From IMG/VR virus record IMGVR_UViG_3300027749_000038: a stretch of 64,000 nt of DNA; one strand, written 5' to 3'. Position 1 is the first letter of the stretch; each line of letters opens with the position of its first letter. Of the stretch, positions 4,035 to 26,657 are shown piece after piece. Source of the stretch: a virus. The notes below the pieces were generated by a model, which did not search any database, was not told the DNA's origin, and saw only the letters and a program-made list of their open reading frames with translations. Both the position numbers and the translations under genes were made by a program.

Positions 4035-5213
4035 ATGAAACTTTCAATTTTCACACCTACCAACAATATTCAATGGATTCATCTTCCGTACAATTCTATT
4101 ATTAAACAAATAGAATTAGATTCTACACTAGATGTAGAATGGGTTATTGTTCCTAATAATAATGTAGAGGTTCCTGAAGATATTAAAAATAAAAGTTGGG
4201 TCAAAATTATTAGATGTTCTAATGATATGAAAAATATTGGAGCTCTTAAGAAATTTGCTTGTTCTGCAGCAACTGGAGATGTTTTTATAGAACTAGATCA
4301 TGATGATGAATTGCTACCCACATCCCTGAGAAAGATTCATGATGCTATGGTAGACAAACCTAATTCATTTCTTTATTCAGACAAAACCGTAGTAAGGCAT
4401 GATGACAAACCTCATTTATATAGCAATGTGTACGGATGGGAGCATTATGCATATGAAAAAGAAACCATCAATAAATCTTTTCTTCCTGATGCTAGATCTT
4501 TGTGTCAAATTTTTTATGCACCGGATCACGTGCGAGTTTGGTCTAGGAAAGCTTATGAATTGTCTGGAGGTCATGATGAAAAATTATTTGTTGGTGATGA
4601 TCATGATTTGATAATTAAAACCTATTTGGCAGGTAGTGAATTTATTTTTCTAGAAGAACCCTTATACACTTACTACATTCACGGAACCAATTCTTGGCTT
4701 CAGAATTGTCAAGCAGTTCAAGTACAGCAACATAATAATACTGATAAATATCTTCGTAGATTGGTGCAGGAATGGTGTAAGAGAGAAAATCTTCCTACAG
4801 TAAAATATCCTACACCAGATTTCTATAATGCAGCTCCTAATAGTGTAGGTTGTATTGAGGCTAATGATGTAATAGCCTCTATTCCCGCTGGTAAAGAAGT
4901 AATTCATTTTATGAATCGTTGTTATGATATCTTAGCTCCAGGAGGTTGGTTGTTGGTAGATGTACCTTCCACAGATGGTCGTGGAGCTTTTTGTGATCCT
5001 CTTCACGTCTCTTTTTGGAATGAATTGAGTTTCCGTTATTATACTAATAAAAACTTTTCAAAGTTTATTCCGGAATATAAAGGAAGATTTCAACAGGTAA
5101 TTCTAAAGACTCATAACCCAAGTAAGTGGCATGAGGAAAATAAAGTTCCATATGTAAGAGCAGATATGTGTGCCATCAAAGGTCAGCGCCAGCCAGGGCA
5201 ATGTTTTATCTAA
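4035..5213 (+). CDS. GT2 glycosyltransferase fused to a class I SAM-methyltransferase-like domain
   Basis: LSIFTPT start, ELDHDD DxD motif; C-terminal LAPGGWLLVDVPSTDGRGAFCDPLHVSFWN. Confidence 0.75.
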   Translation: MKLSIFTPTNNIQWIHLPYNSIIKQIELDSTLDVEWVIVPNNNVEVPEDIKNKSWVKIIRCSNDMKNIGALKKFACSAATGDVFIELDHDDELLPTSLRKIHDAMVDKPNSFLYSDKTVVRHDDKPHLYSNVYGWEHYAYEKETINKSFLPDARSLCQIFYAPDHVRVWSRKAYELSGGHDEKLFVGDDHDLIIKTYLAGSEFIFLEEPLYTYYIHGTNSWLQNCQAVQVQQHNNTDKYLRRLVQEWCKRENLPTVKYPTPDFYNAAPNSVGCIEANDVIASIPAGKEVIHFMNRCYDILAPGGWLLVDVPSTDGRGAFCDPLHVSFWNELSFRYYTNKNFSKFIPEYKGRFQQVILKTHNPSKWHEENKVPYVRADMCAIKGQRQPGQCFI

Positions 5214-10954: not shown

Positions 10955-11701
10955 TTATTTTTTAAAATTATACATTTTAATCCATTTTTGTATTAGAGAT
11001 TTTCCAACATTAAACATTAAAGCCATTTCTTTTCGTGTGTAAAGAGTAAAAGCTTTGTACAAAACATCTTTGGGTGGGATGGGTTTTGTTATACCAATTA
11101 TCTTTTTAGGGCTTAATTTACACTCCCGGAGCCATTCATATACTTTGCTTTTGCTAACTTGAAAATAGTTCATTATACCTTCTACACCTTCAGATTGAAA
11201 TAATTCTTTTACTTTAGATTTGTCACATCGATATTTGTATTTAGAATTTTTATTATTAATTTTTCCCAAATTTATGGAATATATTTTAAACCATTTACAT
11301 ACAGTCATATCAGATACTTTATAAAGAATTCCTATTTTTTTGTAAGACATGTTTTTGTTATAATATAAATTTAGCAGATCATCCTTGGGTGGCATCTTTT
11401 TGGTGATAGTACTTTTGATAAATGCATATTGCCATGAATTTAGTTGTTTTAAATTACCATAAGCCATTGCACTCAAACCCTTAACTATCCTGATGTTAGT
11501 GGGATGAATTTTATACAATAACAAATGGGCAAAAAAATGTTCTCTGGGAGTTAAATATACCAAATTTGAAGGATCATCTGATCCTCCTAAACCTCTAGGA
11601 CGAATGTGATGGCATTCAATATACCCGTCTCTCTCAAGAACTTTTCTAGAATTTATAAATTTCTTATACAATTGTTTATAGTAGTTTTGATTTTTAATCA
11701 T
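10955..11701 (-). mobile_element. Free-standing HNH homing endonuclease with C-terminal HTH repeats
   Basis: ECHHIRPRGLGGSDDPSNLVYLTPREHFFAHLLL; repeated VSDMTVCKWF / VSKSKVYEWL / VGKSLIQKWI helices. Start moved to 11701 because a minus-strand TATAAATA lies at 11707-11714. Confidence 0.88.
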
Positions 11702-20538: not shown

Positions 20539-21229
20539 AATTTTCCACTGAAAGTTTTTTGTCTTGTATGTTGATTAAATGCTGGGATAGTTTGTCCAAG
20601 AGACCTTCATTTCTCAGTTTCTTAAAGACTAAATTGTCTACACCAAACTCACCGTCTTTTATTAAACCTTCCTTACGATCTTGTGAAATTTTCTTTTTAA
20701 TTTTATTCAAAAATTCTAAATTAGTATTTTTGCTAATATTATGGAGTATGAGATCCTGATATTCTTTAAATTTTTTGTGGAATAATTCTTCATCTACATT
20801 TATAGATTCTTCATCAATTAGTACTGGATGCAAAATCCATTTATTATCTAAAATACTATACACCCCAGTTGAAGTGTGTGTTTCTTCTGTATTCTGAATA
20901 TAAACTTCAACCTCTCTGCCTAAAATCTTTATGTCGTGTTCATTATTCCATAAAGATTTTTTAGCCAGTACATAATCTCTGGTTAATTCTTCTTCACATT
21001 TAACCTTACTAAACGGTACTAGAATATGTAAATCTATATCACTAGAGGAAGTATAGTTGTAATTTGCAGAAGATCCAGTTAATGTAATGTCTTCTGGTTC
21101 TTGGTCTATTTTAATAGTGTCATAAAAAGTTGCTGCTATTTCCAATAACTTTTCTTGAATCTCTGGTTTCAATACATCATTATCATCCCACAAATCTGGA
21201 TTTAATTTGTAATGAATTTGTGGCCTCAT
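20510..21229 (-). CDS. Pol-beta superfamily nucleotidyltransferase
   Basis: TLTGSSANYNYTSSSDIDLHI (GS...DxD) and VEVYIQ. Confidence 0.75.
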   Translation of the reverse strand: MRPQIHYKLNPDLWDDNDVLKPEIQEKLLEIAATFYDTIKIDQEPEDITLTGSSANYNYTSSSDIDLHILVPFSKVKCEEELTRDYVLAKKSLWNNEHDIKILGREVEVYIQNTEETHTSTGVYSILDNKWILHPVLIDEESINVDEELFHKKFKEYQDLILHNISKNTNLEFLNKIKKKISQDRKEGLIKDGEFGVDNLVFKKLRNEGLLDKLSQHLINIQDKKLSVENFISFVSKKK

Positions 21230-22287
21230 AATTCCATTCCTTCAAATTCTGATAAATTAACCTGTGTGTCTCTAGCTCCGATCTTATAAGAGGAGATCTC
21301 AGTTTCTTGAGGAGCAACTTGAACCTTTTCTGAGTTCATAAATTGATCATACCAAGCTCCAAGAGGATTCTTTTTGATATCAAAGATTTTATTATAACCT
21401 AAAGAAGCTAAGCGATTATTGGCCAACCATTCCACATAGCCTTTGAGGATGTCTGAATTTAATCCCATCAATCCACCTTGACTAAAGAGATAATCTGCCC
21501 ATCGTTTTTCTTGTTCCACTGCCAAACCATAGACATCATATATCTTTTGGGTATTTTCCTTTACAATGTCTTGAAATCCTTCTGAAGGTTCTGTTTTAAG
21601 ATAGTGTAAGATGTTCTGAGAAACTGCTACATGAAGATTTTCATCTCTTGCAATAAATTTGATAATTTTTCCATTACCTTCCATCTTACCTCTTGCTGCA
21701 AAAAAGAAACTGCATACAAAAGAAGTATAAAAAGAAAGACCCTCTGTAATTTGGGTTGCTAATAAAGCATCAAATATTTTATTTTTAATATTTTTAGGTT
21801 CACCAAAGAAATTATCATATTCTTTTTTAATCTCATTGGCTCTGTGAACTACTTCTGTATCTTCTAAAATAGAATTCCAAAATAAAGATTCATCTGTATA
21901 AACGTTTTTGAGAATATGAGAATAGGAGCGACTATGAATATTGGATTCAAAAAATGCCCATACATTCATACAAGCTTCTAATTCTGGATTACTAACATAG
22001 CTTCCCATTTTAAGAAGACTTCTACTCAACATAGAATCGGTCATGGTTTGCCATTTCAAATTTGTATCAAATACAAATTTTTCTGATTCGGTGAGATCAT
22101 TATAGTCATTACGATCTTTAACCAAACTTACTTCATTGGCTCTCCAAAAATACTCTTCCATTCTTTCTGCGAGCTCAAATAATTTTGGATACTTGAGCTG
22201 GTCATATCGTTGAAGGGCTAGGGGTTCTCCGAGAAACAATGGTTGTAGGCGTGTATCAATGTTTTTAGTGTTTAAGACGGTAGACAT
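21226..22287 (-). CDS. nrdB: Class Ia ribonucleotide reductase beta subunit
   Basis: FWRANE, QTMTDS, FESNIHSRSY, EGLSFY, IARDENLH, VAPQE di-iron motifs. Confidence 0.95.
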   Translation of the reverse strand: MSTVLNTKNIDTRLQPLFLGEPLALQRYDQLKYPKLFELAERMEEYFWRANEVSLVKDRNDYNDLTESEKFVFDTNLKWQTMTDSMLSRSLLKMGSYVSNPELEACMNVWAFFESNIHSRSYSHILKNVYTDESLFWNSILEDTEVVHRANEIKKEYDNFFGEPKNIKNKIFDALLATQITEGLSFYTSFVCSFFFAARGKMEGNGKIIKFIARDENLHVAVSQNILHYLKTEPSEGFQDIVKENTQKIYDVYGLAVEQEKRWADYLFSQGGLMGLNSDILKGYVEWLANNRLASLGYNKIFDIKKNPLGAWYDQFMNSEKVQVAPQETEISSYKIGARDTQVNLSEFEGMEL

Positions 22288-22326
22288 ATTTATACTTAGT
22301 TTAATTTATAACTATAAAATTTCAAA

Positions 22327-23382
22327 TTAGATTGTGCAACTTCCACCAACACAGCCACTTCCTTCGTCTGTAGCAGATTGTTTATCTCCGTCATAGGTAT
22401 TGCTGTAATAAAGAGTTTTTACACCCATACTATAAGCATATAACAATTCTTTAAGAATTACCGAATCCGGCAATGCCTTATTTGGATAATGATCATAATT
22501 GTAATACAGATTTGCTGAGATAGCCATATCTGTCCATTTTTGAATTGCTGCTACTATATTGATATAACCAGTGTTATCTGGCATATCAAATTGTAATGTA
22601 TACTTGTTTTTATATGTGGAATAATTTGGAACCAACAAAGGCACTGAATTAGCTTTAGAACCTTTATAGGTAAGCAAAGACCTAGGAGGTTCAATACCGT
22701 TGGTAGAATTTTGAATAACAGAACTAGATTCACACGGCATCATGGCGGTCAATGTAGAATGTCTCATACCATGAGCCAACACTTTCTGTCTTAATTCTTC
22801 CCAATCTAAAGAAGGTTTGCGGGTTACTACTTGATCTACTTTCTTTTTATAGGTGTCTATAGGCAAGATACCTTGAGAATATTTGGTGGTATTAAATTTT
22901 TCACACGGTCCCTTTTCTTTGGCTAGCTCTATAGAAGAGGAAATAAGGTGGTATTGTATTTTTTCCATCAAAGTATCTACAAAGTTAGGAGCCTCTGTAT
23001 CCATATACTTGAGATTATTCTTAGCTAAGAGAGCTGCTAAATTAGTAATTCCTACACCGAGACTTCTACGTTTTCTTGTAAAATTCTCTGCTGCTTTGGT
23101 GAAGTATTCTTGATAATCAATAATTTCATCTAGCATGCGTACAATTGTATCACAGGTATCTATTAAATCTTGATCATCTTTAATTTCTAACACATTAATA
23201 GCAGAAAGAACACAAATACCAATTTCCCCTTCTGGATCATCTATATGTTGAATTGGTTTGGTGGGATGAGTAACTTCAACACAATTGTGTACCAATATCT
23301 TATTGGCGTAAAAATTGCGGTTGTCTTTTACACTGATATCATATACTGCTTCTCGGTTTAACACTTTTTTAATTTTAATCAT
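22327..23382 (-). CDS. nrdA: Split-intein C-fragment (33 aa) fused to the NrdA C-terminal half
   Basis: MIKIKK...VYDISV...FYANKILVHN|CVEV; then ICVLSAIN, LGVGITNLA, MPCESSS, NGIEPP, KTLYY, C-terminal CxxxxC. Confidence 0.93.
   Translation of the reverse strand: MIKIKKVLNREAVYDISVKDNRNFYANKILVHNCVEVTHPTKPIQHIDDPEGEIGICVLSAINVLEIKDDQDLIDTCDTIVRMLDEIIDYQEYFTKAAENFTRKRRSLGVGITNLAALLAKNNLKYMDTEAPNFVDTLMEKIQYHLISSSIELAKEKGPCEKFNTTKYSQGILPIDTYKKKVDQVVTRKPSLDWEELRQKVLAHGMRHSTLTAMMPCESSSVIQNSTNGIEPPRSLLTYKGSKANSVPLLVPNYSTYKNKYTLQFDMPDNTGYINIVAAIQKWTDMAISANLYYNYDHYPNKALPDSVILKELLYAYSMGVKTLYYSNTYDGDKQSATDEGSGCVGGSCTI
23284..23382 (-). mobile_element. Split intein IntC
   Basis: Block F VYDISV and block G LVHN followed by +1 Cys. 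Confidence 0.9.
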
Positions 23383-23394
23383 AATTCTTGTTTT

Positions 23395-25044
23395 TTAAAT
23401 TAAATTTAAAACATCTGACTCCAACAATTCACTAGCCTTAACATAACCTCGGTTGTTAGTGTAAATTAAATGTTCCGGTGTGCAACGAATGGTTTGATTA
23501 GTTTCTGTATCTGTAATTTCAACCAATTCTGCTTCGGGATGAGTCATTGTAGCTCCGGTGAGCAATTTAAATTCATTTTCTTGCGTATCTAGATTCTTGG
23601 ACCAAACGTACATTTCTTCTAAATCCTCTTTAGAATTATATAATTCTGTTATTTGTTCTAATGTTAAAACTGATGACATGAAATTGTTATCTTCTTTGTT
23701 TTTGATAAGACACAAAACTTCCGTGTCACCTGTAAGACACAGATTTGTCATTGAAACTCTTTCTAAGAAAGATCCGTGTTCATTACAATGATCCATATTC
23801 ATCACGTAATATCTTCCAGTCTCTGTTCTTTCTTTAGTAAATTGAGACAATAGAGCAGAAGCTTTGACCTTCCTTTTATACTTTATCGATTTATCTGCTT
23901 CACATTTTATATATAATTCATCAAACTGCGGAAGACCAAAAGATTCGGTCAATTCTGGAACTTCATGTGGAGAAAATAATGTTATAGTTTCATTTTTCAT
24001 GAAGCGCTCATAAAACAATTTTGAAAATTGAATTACATAATCTACTTTTCTAACTCGATTATCTTCAGTACCACCGTTATTTTTTAAAGAGAGAATATCT
24101 TCAATTTCATAATGCCAGATTGGAAAGTTAACCGTAGCTCCCCCTCCTCTGATACCATTTTGTTGACAAGACTTGACGGTGGCTTCAAATACTTTAAGAA
24201 AAGGAATAATTCCGGTATGAATAACACTACCTCCTTTGATCTCTGTGCCAATTCCTCTAATACGACCAAAATTCAATCCGATTCCGTATCTTTGAGTAGT
24301 AGCAAAACCAGCAGCAGTATTGGAACTAAAAATAGATTCCTTAGTGTCACCCACATCAATGAGACAACAAGACGCGTATTGTTTAAGAAGACCTCTAAGG
24401 CCAGCCATTTGCGGGGTAGGTAAATTGATTTTAAATTTACTGAATTTGTCGTATGCTCTTTTGACATAATTTAAACGGGTATTTTGAGAATAATTAATAT
24501 GGCTTACCATGGCTGCAAGCATATAAGCAAATTGAGGAGTCTCGAATATCTCCTTGTTCTTTCTATTTTGAATGAGATATTTGTCACACAATTGCTTTAA
24601 TCCAGAATAGGTAAAGTTGTAATCTCTGTCGTGATTAATTTTGTCATCTAATTTGTCTATCTCTGCTTTAGAATATTTTTCTAAAATTTCTGGATGATAT
24701 AGATTTTTATCTGTATTGTTTTTAATAAAATCATAAAGTCGTGGAGGATTTTTTCCACCCCATACATCTTTACGTATTTGATAATTCAATAATCTAGAGG
24801 CAACCCATTGATAATTAGGATTCTCTTCATTAAACAAATTAATAGAAGCGTCTATCAGTACCTTGTGAATTTCCTTAGTAGTAATGCCATCCGCTAAATT
24901 TAATTTAGTATTAATAGCTATGTCCGAAACACTAACTCCGGTTATATTTTGGGATCCCCATTTTATTACTTTGTATATGTTTTCTACATTAAATGGAACC
25001 CGTGTTCCGTCCCGTTTTGTAACGTGAAGAATTTTTTCACTCAT
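23395..25044 (-). CDS. nrdA: NrdA N-terminal half (ATP cone) fused to a split-intein N-fragment (114 aa)
   Basis: VTKRDG ATP cone, ETPQF, LPTP, ASCCL, QNGIRGG; ends SMTNL|CLTGDT...CTPEH...VKASEL*. Confidence 0.93.
   Translation of the reverse strand: MSEKILHVTKRDGTRVPFNVENIYKVIKWGSQNITGVSVSDIAINTKLNLADGITTKEIHKVLIDASINLFNEENPNYQWVASRLLNYQIRKDVWGGKNPPRLYDFIKNNTDKNLYHPEILEKYSKAEIDKLDDKINHDRDYNFTYSGLKQLCDKYLIQNRKNKEIFETPQFAYMLAAMVSHINYSQNTRLNYVKRAYDKFSKFKINLPTPQMAGLRGLLKQYASCCLIDVGDTKESIFSSNTAAGFATTQRYGIGLNFGRIRGIGTEIKGGSVIHTGIIPFLKVFEATVKSCQQNGIRGGGATVNFPIWHYEIEDILSLKNNGGTEDNRVRKVDYVIQFSKLFYERFMKNETITLFSPHEVPELTESFGLPQFDELYIKCEADKSIKYKRKVKASALLSQFTKERTETGRYYVMNMDHCNEHGSFLERVSMTNLCLTGDTEVLCLIKNKEDNNFMSSVLTLEQITELYNSKEDLEEMYVWSKNLDTQENEFKLLTGATMTHPEAELVEITDTETNQTIRCTPEHLIYTNNRGYVKASELLESDVLNLI
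23398..23739 (-). mobile_element. Split intein IntN
   Basis: Block A CLTGDT, block B CTPEHLIYT; no endonuclease domain. Confidence 0.9.
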
Positions 25045-25061
25045 AAAAGATTGTTGTCTAT

Positions 25062-25448
25062 TTATACTCTCAAATCACTCATATTGCTATTTGTTTTTGC
25101 GTCTAGCAATTTAATTTTTAAACGCTCTTTGTTTGTTTCGGATTGATATATTTTATCAGCTATTTTTTTAAGAAATGTTGCGGCCTGGAGGGTTGTGCAT
25201 GTATTAATTAGACGAGATTCTGCATATAACACAGAAGTTTCATTCCAGGTTGGATGTAAATAATGTATTAGTTCATGCATTGTTGTGGGGATAATATCCC
25301 TACGATAATCCAATTCTATATCAGTCATGTAACAGAGACCTACAGTACTATGCATTTTTCTTAAATTAAAAAATTCTGCTGGTTTAGAATCAACCAAATC
25401 AACCAAATCAACAAAGAGTTTTTGTACTTCTTCATTGTTTAATTTCAT
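25062..25448 (-). CDS. Small HExxH zincin-like protein
   Basis: TTMHELIHYLHP...E; VGLC strand upstream. Confidence 0.5.
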   Translation of the reverse strand: MKLNNEEVQKLFVDLVDLVDSKPAEFFNLRKMHSTVGLCYMTDIELDYRRDIIPTTMHELIHYLHPTWNETSVLYAESRLINTCTTLQAATFLKKIADKIYQSETNKERLKIKLLDAKTNSNMSDLRV

Positions 25449-25778
25449 TTATTTGGATTTTTGTTTTTTATCACTAGCTACCTTAGCCAGCTCTTTCAAT
25501 TTATCTTGAACAATTAAAAATCTTTTTTCTGCTTGTTCTAGTGTATTACAAGTCCAACCCCTATCACCCCACTGAGAAGAACTGGGATACAATTCTCCAG
25601 CCTCTATCAAATTTCCGTTAATTGTTATTCCATCGTGTCTGGTAATAATGACCACTTCAAAGTGTGCTGTAGCATTTGTACCGACCTGTTTTCTCCTGTA
25701 TATAGCTAAATCTCCCTCTCGTTTAAGAAGAGTGTGGCGAAATTCTTTTTTGACAAATTTTTCAGCTAGTTTTTTCAT
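25449..25778 (-). CDS. Hypothetical protein
   Basis: 109-aa ORF; upstream minus-strand TTGATA-N17-GATAAT at 25813-25785. Confidence 0.6.
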   Translation of the reverse strand: MKKLAEKFVKKEFRHTLLKREGDLAIYRRKQVGTNATAHFEVVIITRHDGITINGNLIEAGELYPSSSQWGDRGWTCNTLEQAEKRFLIVQDKLKELAKVASDKKQKSK

Positions 25779-25859
25779 AAAACAATTATCTGCGATTTTT
25801 AAAAAAATATCAAGAAAAAAAAGTGATTGTTTTTTTGTTTGAAGATATTATATGTTATA

Positions 25860-26657
25860 ATGAATTTACAAACAATAGCAGACCTTGAATCAGCTTTCAA
25901 GGATGTTACCTTTTTTGATAAGGGACATTCTTATAAGATAGGGGATGAGGAAGGAACTTCGGTTTCAAGGATTATCAAAAAATACGAACCATATTTTGAT
26001 GCAGATAAATTAGCTAATATTGTTGCAAAAAGACAAGGGGTCTTGGTAGAAGATGTTAGGCATCTTTGGGATTTTAAAAGAGAGTATGCTTGTGAAAAGG
26101 GTACAATGGTACATAATTATATTGAAAATTATATCTTTCGTAAGAGAACTTTATTAAACAAAGAAAATATAAAAACCTTTATTAAAAGATATCCAGAGAA
26201 TGTAACAGAAGAAACCTTCTACAATGATGTAGCTTGTCATATTAAAAATTTCTTGGAATTCTATAAGTGGTGGAGTGAAGATCATATCTTAGTAAAATCA
26301 GAATATGTCATGGGAGATAAACCATCCCGCATTTGTGGTACCCTAGATAATCTCTCTTACAATTTTAAAGAAAAATGTTTTGTAATTTTTGATTATAAAA
26401 CTAATAAATTATTAACAGAAAAAAAGTCTTCTGATAGTATGTTGGGAATATTGAAACATTTGCAAAGTTCTCACATAGTAAAATATAGTTTACAATTACA
26501 TCTTTATTCTCTTCTAATAGAACGTAATACAGGATTAAAAATAAATAACTGTAACATAGTTTGGATTGGTGGTTCAAATTATGAACTAATTCCTACAATA
26601 GACTTAAGAGTAGAAGCTGAAAGCATAATTAATAACCATACTATAGGAATAAATTGA
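25860..26657 (+). CDS. PD-(D/E)xK exonuclease (Cas4/RecB-like family)
   Basis: GTMVHNYIE, ICGTLD, IFDYKT, YSLQLHLY. Confidence 0.8.
   Translation: MNLQTIADLESAFKDVTFFDKGHSYKIGDEEGTSVSRIIKKYEPYFDADKLANIVAKRQGVLVEDVRHLWDFKREYACEKGTMVHNYIENYIFRKRTLLNKENIKTFIKRYPENVTEETFYNDVACHIKNFLEFYKWWSEDHILVKSEYVMGDKPSRICGTLDNLSYNFKEKCFVIFDYKTNKLLTEKKSSDSMLGILKHLQSSHIVKYSLQLHLYSLLIERNTGLKINNCNIVWIGGSNYELIPTIDLRVEAESIINNHTIGIN

Follow-up and report, generated by a model that had tools for sequence, protein, structure and literature searches.

How does a phage obtain a functional ribonucleotide reductase (RNR) when its nrdA gene is broken at the codon for the catalytic cysteine? This question is posed by IMG/VR virus record IMGVR_UViG_3300027749_000038, a stretch of 64,000 nucleotides (nt) that is called the window in its entirety, and whose minus strand carries nrdA as two open reading frames (ORFs), nrdA-N and then nrdA-C, with nrdB downstream. 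A first-pass annotation, made from the letters of this DNA, had described two halves in one frame, separated by a single TAA and 12 nt with no endonuclease gene between them, and a split intein at the thiyl-radical Cys of the N-x-C-x-E motif. The ORF coordinates and the translation agree with this layout, and the profile matches, the predicted fold and the splicing residues agree with the intein. We consider it probable that the element in this large T4-like lake phage is a class-1 intein, naturally split and belonging to the NrdJ-1-like family that resides in phage RNR genes, seated directly before the thiyl-radical Cys, and that its locus represents the final stage of a "fractured gene", left with no endonuclease. 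Judged from the sequence, NrdA, the large RNR subunit, should be made as two proteins and stitched together by the split intein.

A split intein at the thiyl-radical cysteine

The read-through translation passes from the N-extein (..ERVSMTNL) into the N-terminal intein half (IntN), which starts at CLTGD (CLTGDTEV...) and closes nrdA-N with ...SDVLNLI. The stop and four codons (K, T, R, I) follow, and the C-terminal intein half (IntC, MIKIKK...NFYANKILVHN) then leads directly into the C-extein (CVEVTHP..). The intein DNA occupies 23284..23739 and comprises 456 nt, or 152 codons. The +1 Cys of the C-extein is itself the thiyl-radical Cys of N-L-C-V-E. The Pfam profile Ribonuc_red_lgC is distributed over both products, with positions 1–212 on nrdA-N and 205–522 on nrdA-C. 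The ATP-cone, all-alpha and barrel domains, together with the N-x-C-x-E motif rebuilt across the junction, identify the host gene as a class Ia nrdA.

The intein was recognized at the levels of profile, sequence and predicted fold. With X at the stop, the read-through scores 51.9 bits against PF14890 (gathering score 35.8), while the single halves score 30.1 and 31.9 bits, both under the threshold. TIGR01445 passes marginally on IntN (24.8 bits, cut-off 24.5) and falls below its cut-off on the read-through (23.3), and TIGR01443 passes clearly on IntC (29.5 bits, cut-off 15.6). Of the solved structures, the NrdJ-1 intein is nearest by sequence (8ubs, E 1.5e-20), and the junction of this fused split intein aligns with the break between IntN and IntC. 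In an AlphaFold2 model of the read-through (alignment A4, X at the stop), the chain is predicted to fold as a confident HINT domain, with a predicted local distance difference test score of 94.3 and a predicted template modelling (TM) score of 0.88; the lowest confidence (82) lies in the block of residues 111–120, at the break. The top Foldseek match of this model is again the NrdJ-1 split-intein fusion 8ubs (TM 0.81, E 5e-13, 36% identity), and ranks 1–46 are all inteins or intein-like (BIL) domains.

The canonical splicing residues are complete: Cys1, the block B T-x-x-H motif (T87-P-E-H90), the block-F Asp, the terminal His-Asn of ILVHN and the +1 Cys nucleophile. Among 13 aligned sequences, no variation occurs at C1, T87, H90, D134, H151 or N152, and almost none at the +1 Cys. 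IntN contains 22 acidic (D/E) and 8 basic (K/R) residues and IntC 3 and 7, which reproduces the earlier residue counts exactly and supports the complementary charge that had been proposed for the halves. Separate translation products, a canonical break between blocks B and F and this charge complementarity characterize a naturally split intein. The locus also has the main traits of a fractured gene, namely an essential gene of DNA metabolism that a split intein interrupts, its halves lying side by side on one strand, and it departs from that description in having no free-standing homing-endonuclease gene between them. No ORF of at least 30 amino acids (aa) lies between nrdA-N and nrdA-C, since the gap measures only 12 nt.

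The NrdJ-1 intein (8ubs, 9omb) shares the split position, Cys1 and the terminal His-Asn with the window intein. It differs in residing in a class II RNR, one residue further along, and in having an endonuclease gene in its locus (PMC2677866). The +1 context of the window intein, Cys-Val-Glu, also differs from that of NrdJ-1.

Table 1. Coordinates of the nrdA region in the window
Feature	Coordinates	Strand	Description
nrdA-N ORF	23395..25044	-	549 aa + TAA; ATP-cone, all-alpha domain, start of RNR barrel, then IntN
N-extein	23740..25044	-	435 aa; C-terminal end ..ERVSMTNL
IntN	23398..23739	-	114 aa; Cys1 in CLTGD, block B T-P-E-H; net acidic
TAA stop closing IntN	23395..23397	-	
Spacer AAA ACA AGA ATT	23383..23394	-	12 nt, A-rich, same frame as both ORFs
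IntC	23284..23382	-	33 aa, MIKIKK...VYDISV...NFYANKILVHN; net basic
nrdA-C ORF	22327..23382	-	351 aa; start MIKIKKVLNREAVYDISVKDNRNFYANKILVHN, then CVEV
C-extein	22327..23283	-	318 aa + stop; begins CVEV; YY pair and C-terminal Cys pair retained
nrdB	21226..22287	-	353 aa; 39 nt downstream of nrdA-C; PF00268 180.5 bits
TATAAATA motif	25059..25066	-	14 nt upstream of nrdA-N ATG

Age of the break and the stop codon

The TAA was checked on assembled contigs of the runs X1, X2 and X3. The X1 contig, from a run that may be the source itself, is identical to the window. A 235-nt X3 contig (record 8) bridges 23351–23585 with one difference and none listed at the TAA, and an X2 contig (record 6) covers 23391–23537 with no differences. 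The outer boundaries of the intein are fixed to the base, because an X4 contig and two viral contigs (L003 and L004) skip exactly 456 nt. Recoding of TAA was considered and rejected, as this triplet is the usual stop, closing 44 of the 56 crude ORFs of the window.

The ends created by the break are conserved in relatives. Four N-halves of 549–550 aa (P0002–P0005), whose IntN is 80–90% identical to that of the window by global alignment and 80–91% over the 120-aa query region, all end in ..LNLI at the same residue. Five C-halves of 349–351 aa (P0013–P0017) start with M[IL]K[IL]K at the same Met position. Because these ends are conserved and TAA is an ordinary stop here, the triplet is very unlikely to reflect a sequencing error, a nonsense mutation of recent date or a recoded codon.

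A search with IntN among 1.84 billion representative proteins gave 409 matches at E <= 1e-3. Among the best 150 of these 409, which were classed, 124 end within 8 aa after IntN, 11 are contiguous mini-inteins and 15 are of other kinds. We also examined 80 viral contigs with IntN relatives. IntC is found downstream in 76 of them, and the remaining four loci end within 164–651 nt. In all 76 loci with both halves, the intein is split at the same break position and resides in an RNR gene, inserted at ..SNL before the Cys or one residue further; the intein terminates in HN before C in 75 of them and in SN before C in one. The earlier annotation had left a choice between a freshly split mini-intein and a fully reduced fractured locus. 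The former is rejected because the break is a family trait, seen in the 76 loci, the 124 representatives, P0002–P0005 and NrdJ-1, while the latter fits the data. On these sequence comparisons, the split in the window nrdA is old rather than fresh.

These observations also bear on the proposal that the window encodes a contiguous 152-aa mini-intein in a single cis-splicing precursor, with the TAA either introduced in error during sequencing or assembly or created by a nonsense mutation in the very recent past. The shared frame of the halves and the complete HINT domain predicted for the read-through would fit this proposal, and contiguous mini-inteins do occur in the family (for example the 910-aa P0006, with an IntN 45% identical to that of the window, and the 11 representatives above). 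Against it, contigs from three runs contain the TAA, the break coincides with the family-wide split site, and the read-through linker is 5–6 residues shorter than those of the contiguous relatives P0006 and P0009. The four diverged N-halves that stop at the same residue and the C-halves that begin at the same Met largely refute a contiguous mini-intein, which we regard as highly improbable.

The family shows further variation. In P0008 (695 aa), an N-half of NrdA, the terminal IntN is preceded by a second intein, which is contiguous. In P0007 (420 aa), a related IntN is joined to another extein (PF21995), and the intein seems to be inserted one residue further. The IntC halves of loci L007, L009 and L012 are acidic (7–8 D/E, 1–2 K/R, start MLKIEYLEE), and those of the window and of the syntenic contig L002 are basic; such charge-swapped sub-families may bear on which halves cross-react.

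Allelic states and the missing endonuclease gene

Fractured nrdA genes have been described previously. Dassa, London, Stoddard, Schueler-Furman and Pietrokovski (2009) reported seven such loci, NrdA-1 to NrdA-7, with the same insertion point, as well as the endonuclease-less locus gp41-7 and a loss step ("step III") in their gene-breaking model (PMC2677866). NrdA-1 to NrdA-7 resemble the window locus in their cyanophage-like or T4-like class I NrdA, in the split intein directly N-terminal to the thiyl-radical Cys, and in the adjacent halves on one strand, with a negative IntN and a positive IntC as reported for NrdA-2. They differ in having a free-standing endonuclease gene between the halves, where the window has 12 nt (PMC2677866). 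This comparison is based on their published description, and a closer relative may exist among the seven. The gp41-7 locus is likewise an endonuclease-less split-intein locus, but its host gene is the gp41 helicase and not nrdA, and it keeps the hairpin normally found upstream of the endonuclease (PMC2677866), whereas no hairpin is predicted at the nrdA junction of the window. No paper on endonuclease-less nrdA split-intein loci was found by title or abstract, although the NrdA-1 to NrdA-7 sequences could hold closer relatives. Since Dassa et al. described both gp41-7 and the loss step, the window element is known in kind. The endonuclease-free stage had already been drawn by them, and the window locus parallels gp41-7 in nrdA, in a still more reduced form.

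The other allelic states were found in related, syntenic viral contigs. L003 and L004 carry an intact, intein-less NrdA of 753 aa reading ..MTNLCVEV.., with 95.4% and 95.3% nt identity to the window. Their alignments with the window exteins are colinear and gapless over 2262 nt (103 and 106 mismatches), and the last 80 aa of the window N-extein are 98.75% and 97.5% identical to theirs. The X4 contig shows the intein-less state at the nrdA site as well. In the syntenic contig L002, of which L001 is a partial copy, nrdA-N (542 aa) and nrdA-C (349 aa) are separated by an 888-nt gap containing a 280-aa HNH gene. L002 shares with the window the flanking genes, the insertion site and a 33-aa IntC that starts at the same position and is 61% identical, and its exteins are 84–86% identical; it represents a different intein allele, because its IntN is only 35% identical by global alignment (42% in the best tblastn segment).

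A first census scored 85 loci, among them 9 complete split contigs besides the window (all with inserts of 1084–1308 nt), 69 distinct contigs without an insert and 3 partial loci, as well as L005, which encodes a 1179-aa NrdA, 29% identical, with a large contiguous intein of 1254 nt. L005 was the only one confirmed of 229 pattern matches in a metagenome scan with alignment A1, and none of 118 pattern matches was confirmed in a genome-contig scan. A GenBank blastn search with the locus returned 297 records, all at 60–80% identity and none covering 80% of the query. A GenBank tblastn search with IntN returned 13 records, all below 60%, with Klebsiella phage KP13-7 the best (41%) and Campylobacter phages at 33–34%. 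An HNH ORF elsewhere in the window (10955–11701, minus strand) matches the L002 endonuclease in the catalytic motif only (55% over 45 aa, E 8e-10), and it was rejected as a paralogue of that endonuclease. The divergence of nrdA from L003 and L004 is mosaic, with 12–25 mismatches per 150 nt at positions 1501–1950 of the spliced gene and 0–9 elsewhere, a pattern that points to recombination inside the C-extein.

In 57 of the 76 family loci, the gap measures 667–1198 nt and contains an ORF of 198–390 aa; the other 19 are devoid of an endonuclease-size ORF, and their gaps range from -11 to 346 nt. A gap of 30 nt or less is found in five: L123 (20), L124 (14), L136 (30), L149 (-11) and L160 (16). 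Thus the absence of an endonuclease gene noted earlier is confirmed, whereas its supposed rarity is not. Sibling pairs of contigs capture the loss. L139 and L154 are 100% identical across the aligned junction region, except that 599 + 16 nt are missing inside the endonuclease gene, which points to what would be a very recent deletion. The same pattern is seen between L137 and L141 (883 nt missing) and between L089 and L088 (728 nt missing). In these pairs, the deletions start 3–11 nt past the stop of IntN and spare a 3′ remnant before IntC. The halves are in frame in two of the six loci with a gap of 30 nt or less, the window included. This proportion equals the chance expectation, so the shared frame, correctly observed in the first-pass annotation, carries no signal. 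Four of the short-gap loci (L123, L124, L136 and L160) have the insertion site one residue further (..SNLC / C...HN / CEI) and contain A-rich spacers of 14–30 nt before ATGATTAA.., much like the window junction.

In the scenario that we favor, a free-standing homing-endonuclease gene once lay between the halves and was deleted to a 12-nt remnant; the window locus would then stand at the end of the fractured-gene pathway, free of an endonuclease, and its same-frame spacing would be coincidental. Two short X2 contigs (records 2 and 6) follow the window sequence only as far as 23391 or starting at 23399, and differ from it beyond these points. In the loose end that lies upstream of IntC (30 letters, read by eye), only one frame is open; it extends a few bases into IntC, as do the endonuclease genes of L007 and L009. 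These loose ends give a faint hint of an endonuclease-bearing allele of the same intein type. A microhomology deletion was also considered; the matches of records 6 and 2 share 9 nt (23391–23399), which is too little to claim one.

A tree of IntN sequences was built with 79 rows. It leaves out L120, L150, L153 and L162, whose loci contain no IntC, L107, which lies on one contig with L007, and L159, whose IntN is truncated by the start of the locus. The endonuclease state is not clustered on this tree, as it needs 18 changes compared with a shuffle mean of 17; the starred branches force at least 5. The rows nearest to the window carry an endonuclease. Several points count against the favored scenario. 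The evidence for the TAA comes from contigs and not from raw reads, the branch of the window IntN is long (0.99) and its placement unstarred, and no whole endonuclease-bearing allele of its exact intein type was recovered. Moreover, the change counts on the tree cannot separate loss of the endonuclease from gain. The last two points also speak for a split that arose in this lineage without an endonuclease, either from an endonuclease-free split ancestor or with later invasion of a split locus, in which case the 12-nt spacer would be original. Endonucleases of different families (HNH and GIY-YIG) in related loci imply repeated invasion and would be in line with such an origin. It is nevertheless unlikely in view of the deletions inside endonuclease genes that left 3′ remnants in the sibling pairs, the endonuclease-size ORF in 57 of the 76 relatives, and the two X2 contigs that diverge at 23391 and 23399, with a loose-end open frame that enters IntC as in L007 and L009.

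Expression, assembly and mobility

The junction offers few signals of its own. The 12-nt spacer before nrdA-C contains neither a Shine-Dalgarno (SD)-like motif nor a TAAGTA/TATAAATA motif, and none of its four codons is a common start codon. An RNA fold of 23345–23445 (101 nt, covering the spacer) gave no stable structure (z = +0.69). Scans of 21000–26000 found 18 promoter-like sites (22.8 ± 4.6 in shuffles) and 4 terminator-like sites (2.2 ± 1.7 in shuffles), with none of either kind between the halves beyond chance. SD-like motifs precede only 7 of the 56 crude ORFs, so translation without them is the norm in the window. TAAGTA or TATAAATA-like motifs lie 5–20 nt upstream of many window start codons, for example those of the ORFs at 1996, 7772, 8556, 20107, 21226, 25044, 27623, 31660 and 34106; in the case of nrdB, the motif lies immediately next to the ATG. 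A motif of the kind common upstream of window ORFs, CATAAGTAAT, also occurs in L002, within the 41 nt (4367–4407) that separate the stop of IntN from the start of the HNH gene.

The TATAAATA motif upstream of nrdA-N is presumably a T4-type late promoter, from which nrdA-N and nrdA-C would be co-transcribed. The halves are read as one transcript because nrdA-C has no motif, structure, promoter or terminator signal at the junction. Translation of nrdA-C would proceed by re-initiation or by an SD-independent start, 12 nt past the TAA in the A-rich spacer. The acidic IntN and the basic IntC would then associate, and trans-splicing would rebuild N-L-C-V-E in a 753-aa NrdA, whose partner would be the adjacent NrdB.

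Since the break lies at the catalytic Cys, an unspliced complex is unlikely to be active, in keeping with established RNR chemistry. This consideration bears on a scheme in which the intein halves no longer splice and dock the NrdA pieces non-covalently. A precedent exists in Aeromonas phage Aeh1, where a T4-like phage NrdA is made as two chains from adjacent genes (nrdA-a/mobE/nrdA-b) that assemble non-covalently (PMC3045599, PMC2677866). The Aeh1 locus differs, though, in having no intein, another break site and an HNH gene between the halves (PMC2677866). In the window, every splicing residue is present and conserved, and without splicing the active-site loop of the complex would retain 147 foreign residues, making docking very unlikely. 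A decaying nrdA pseudogene, with the phage relying on the host RNR, would recall the broken nrdA genes reported in Campylobacter phages (PMC3653736). It is scarcely credible here, where the exteins are full length, the 80-aa stretches flanking the junction are 95–99% identical to the intact 753-aa alleles, nt identity to these is 95% over the whole gene, nrdB is intact next door and the intein halves are conserved across relatives.

The identities of inteins and exteins are discordant among relatives. P0003 is 97.5% identical to the window in the N-extein and 80.7% in IntN, P0002 87.2% and 90.4%, and L002 83.7% and 35.1%. Within ±15 nt of the junction, L003 and L004 have 5 and 7 mismatches, compared with about 4.6% overall. 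This cluster is weak evidence. A co-conversion tract is left as a hint, as other intein-less alleles share some of the window letters. Given the three allelic states in syntenic contigs, the discordant identities and the junction cluster, we tentatively suggest that endonuclease-free split inteins could still be mobile. They would spread through a phage population with the help of endonucleases provided in trans by co-infecting relatives whose own allele at this nrdA site includes the endonuclease gene, a possibility that we consider doubtful.

The window locus leaves the knowledge of inteins and RNR unchanged. It contributes a further natural split intein of the NrdJ-1-like kind (114 + 33 aa, with Cys1 and a +1 Cys) as a candidate for speed and orthogonality, and its use as an orthogonal split intein is possible. 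Among its relatives, NrdJ-1 has been reported as very fast and NrdA-2 as identified but uncharacterised (Pinto et al. 2020, PMC7090010). For the family, the locus would provide a clean, fully assembled nrdA example of the last fractured-gene stage, with empty-site and endonuclease-bearing states found in related syntenic contigs, some of them near-identical to the window, and the sibling pairs in public viral contigs provide direct evidence of repeated endonuclease-gene loss.

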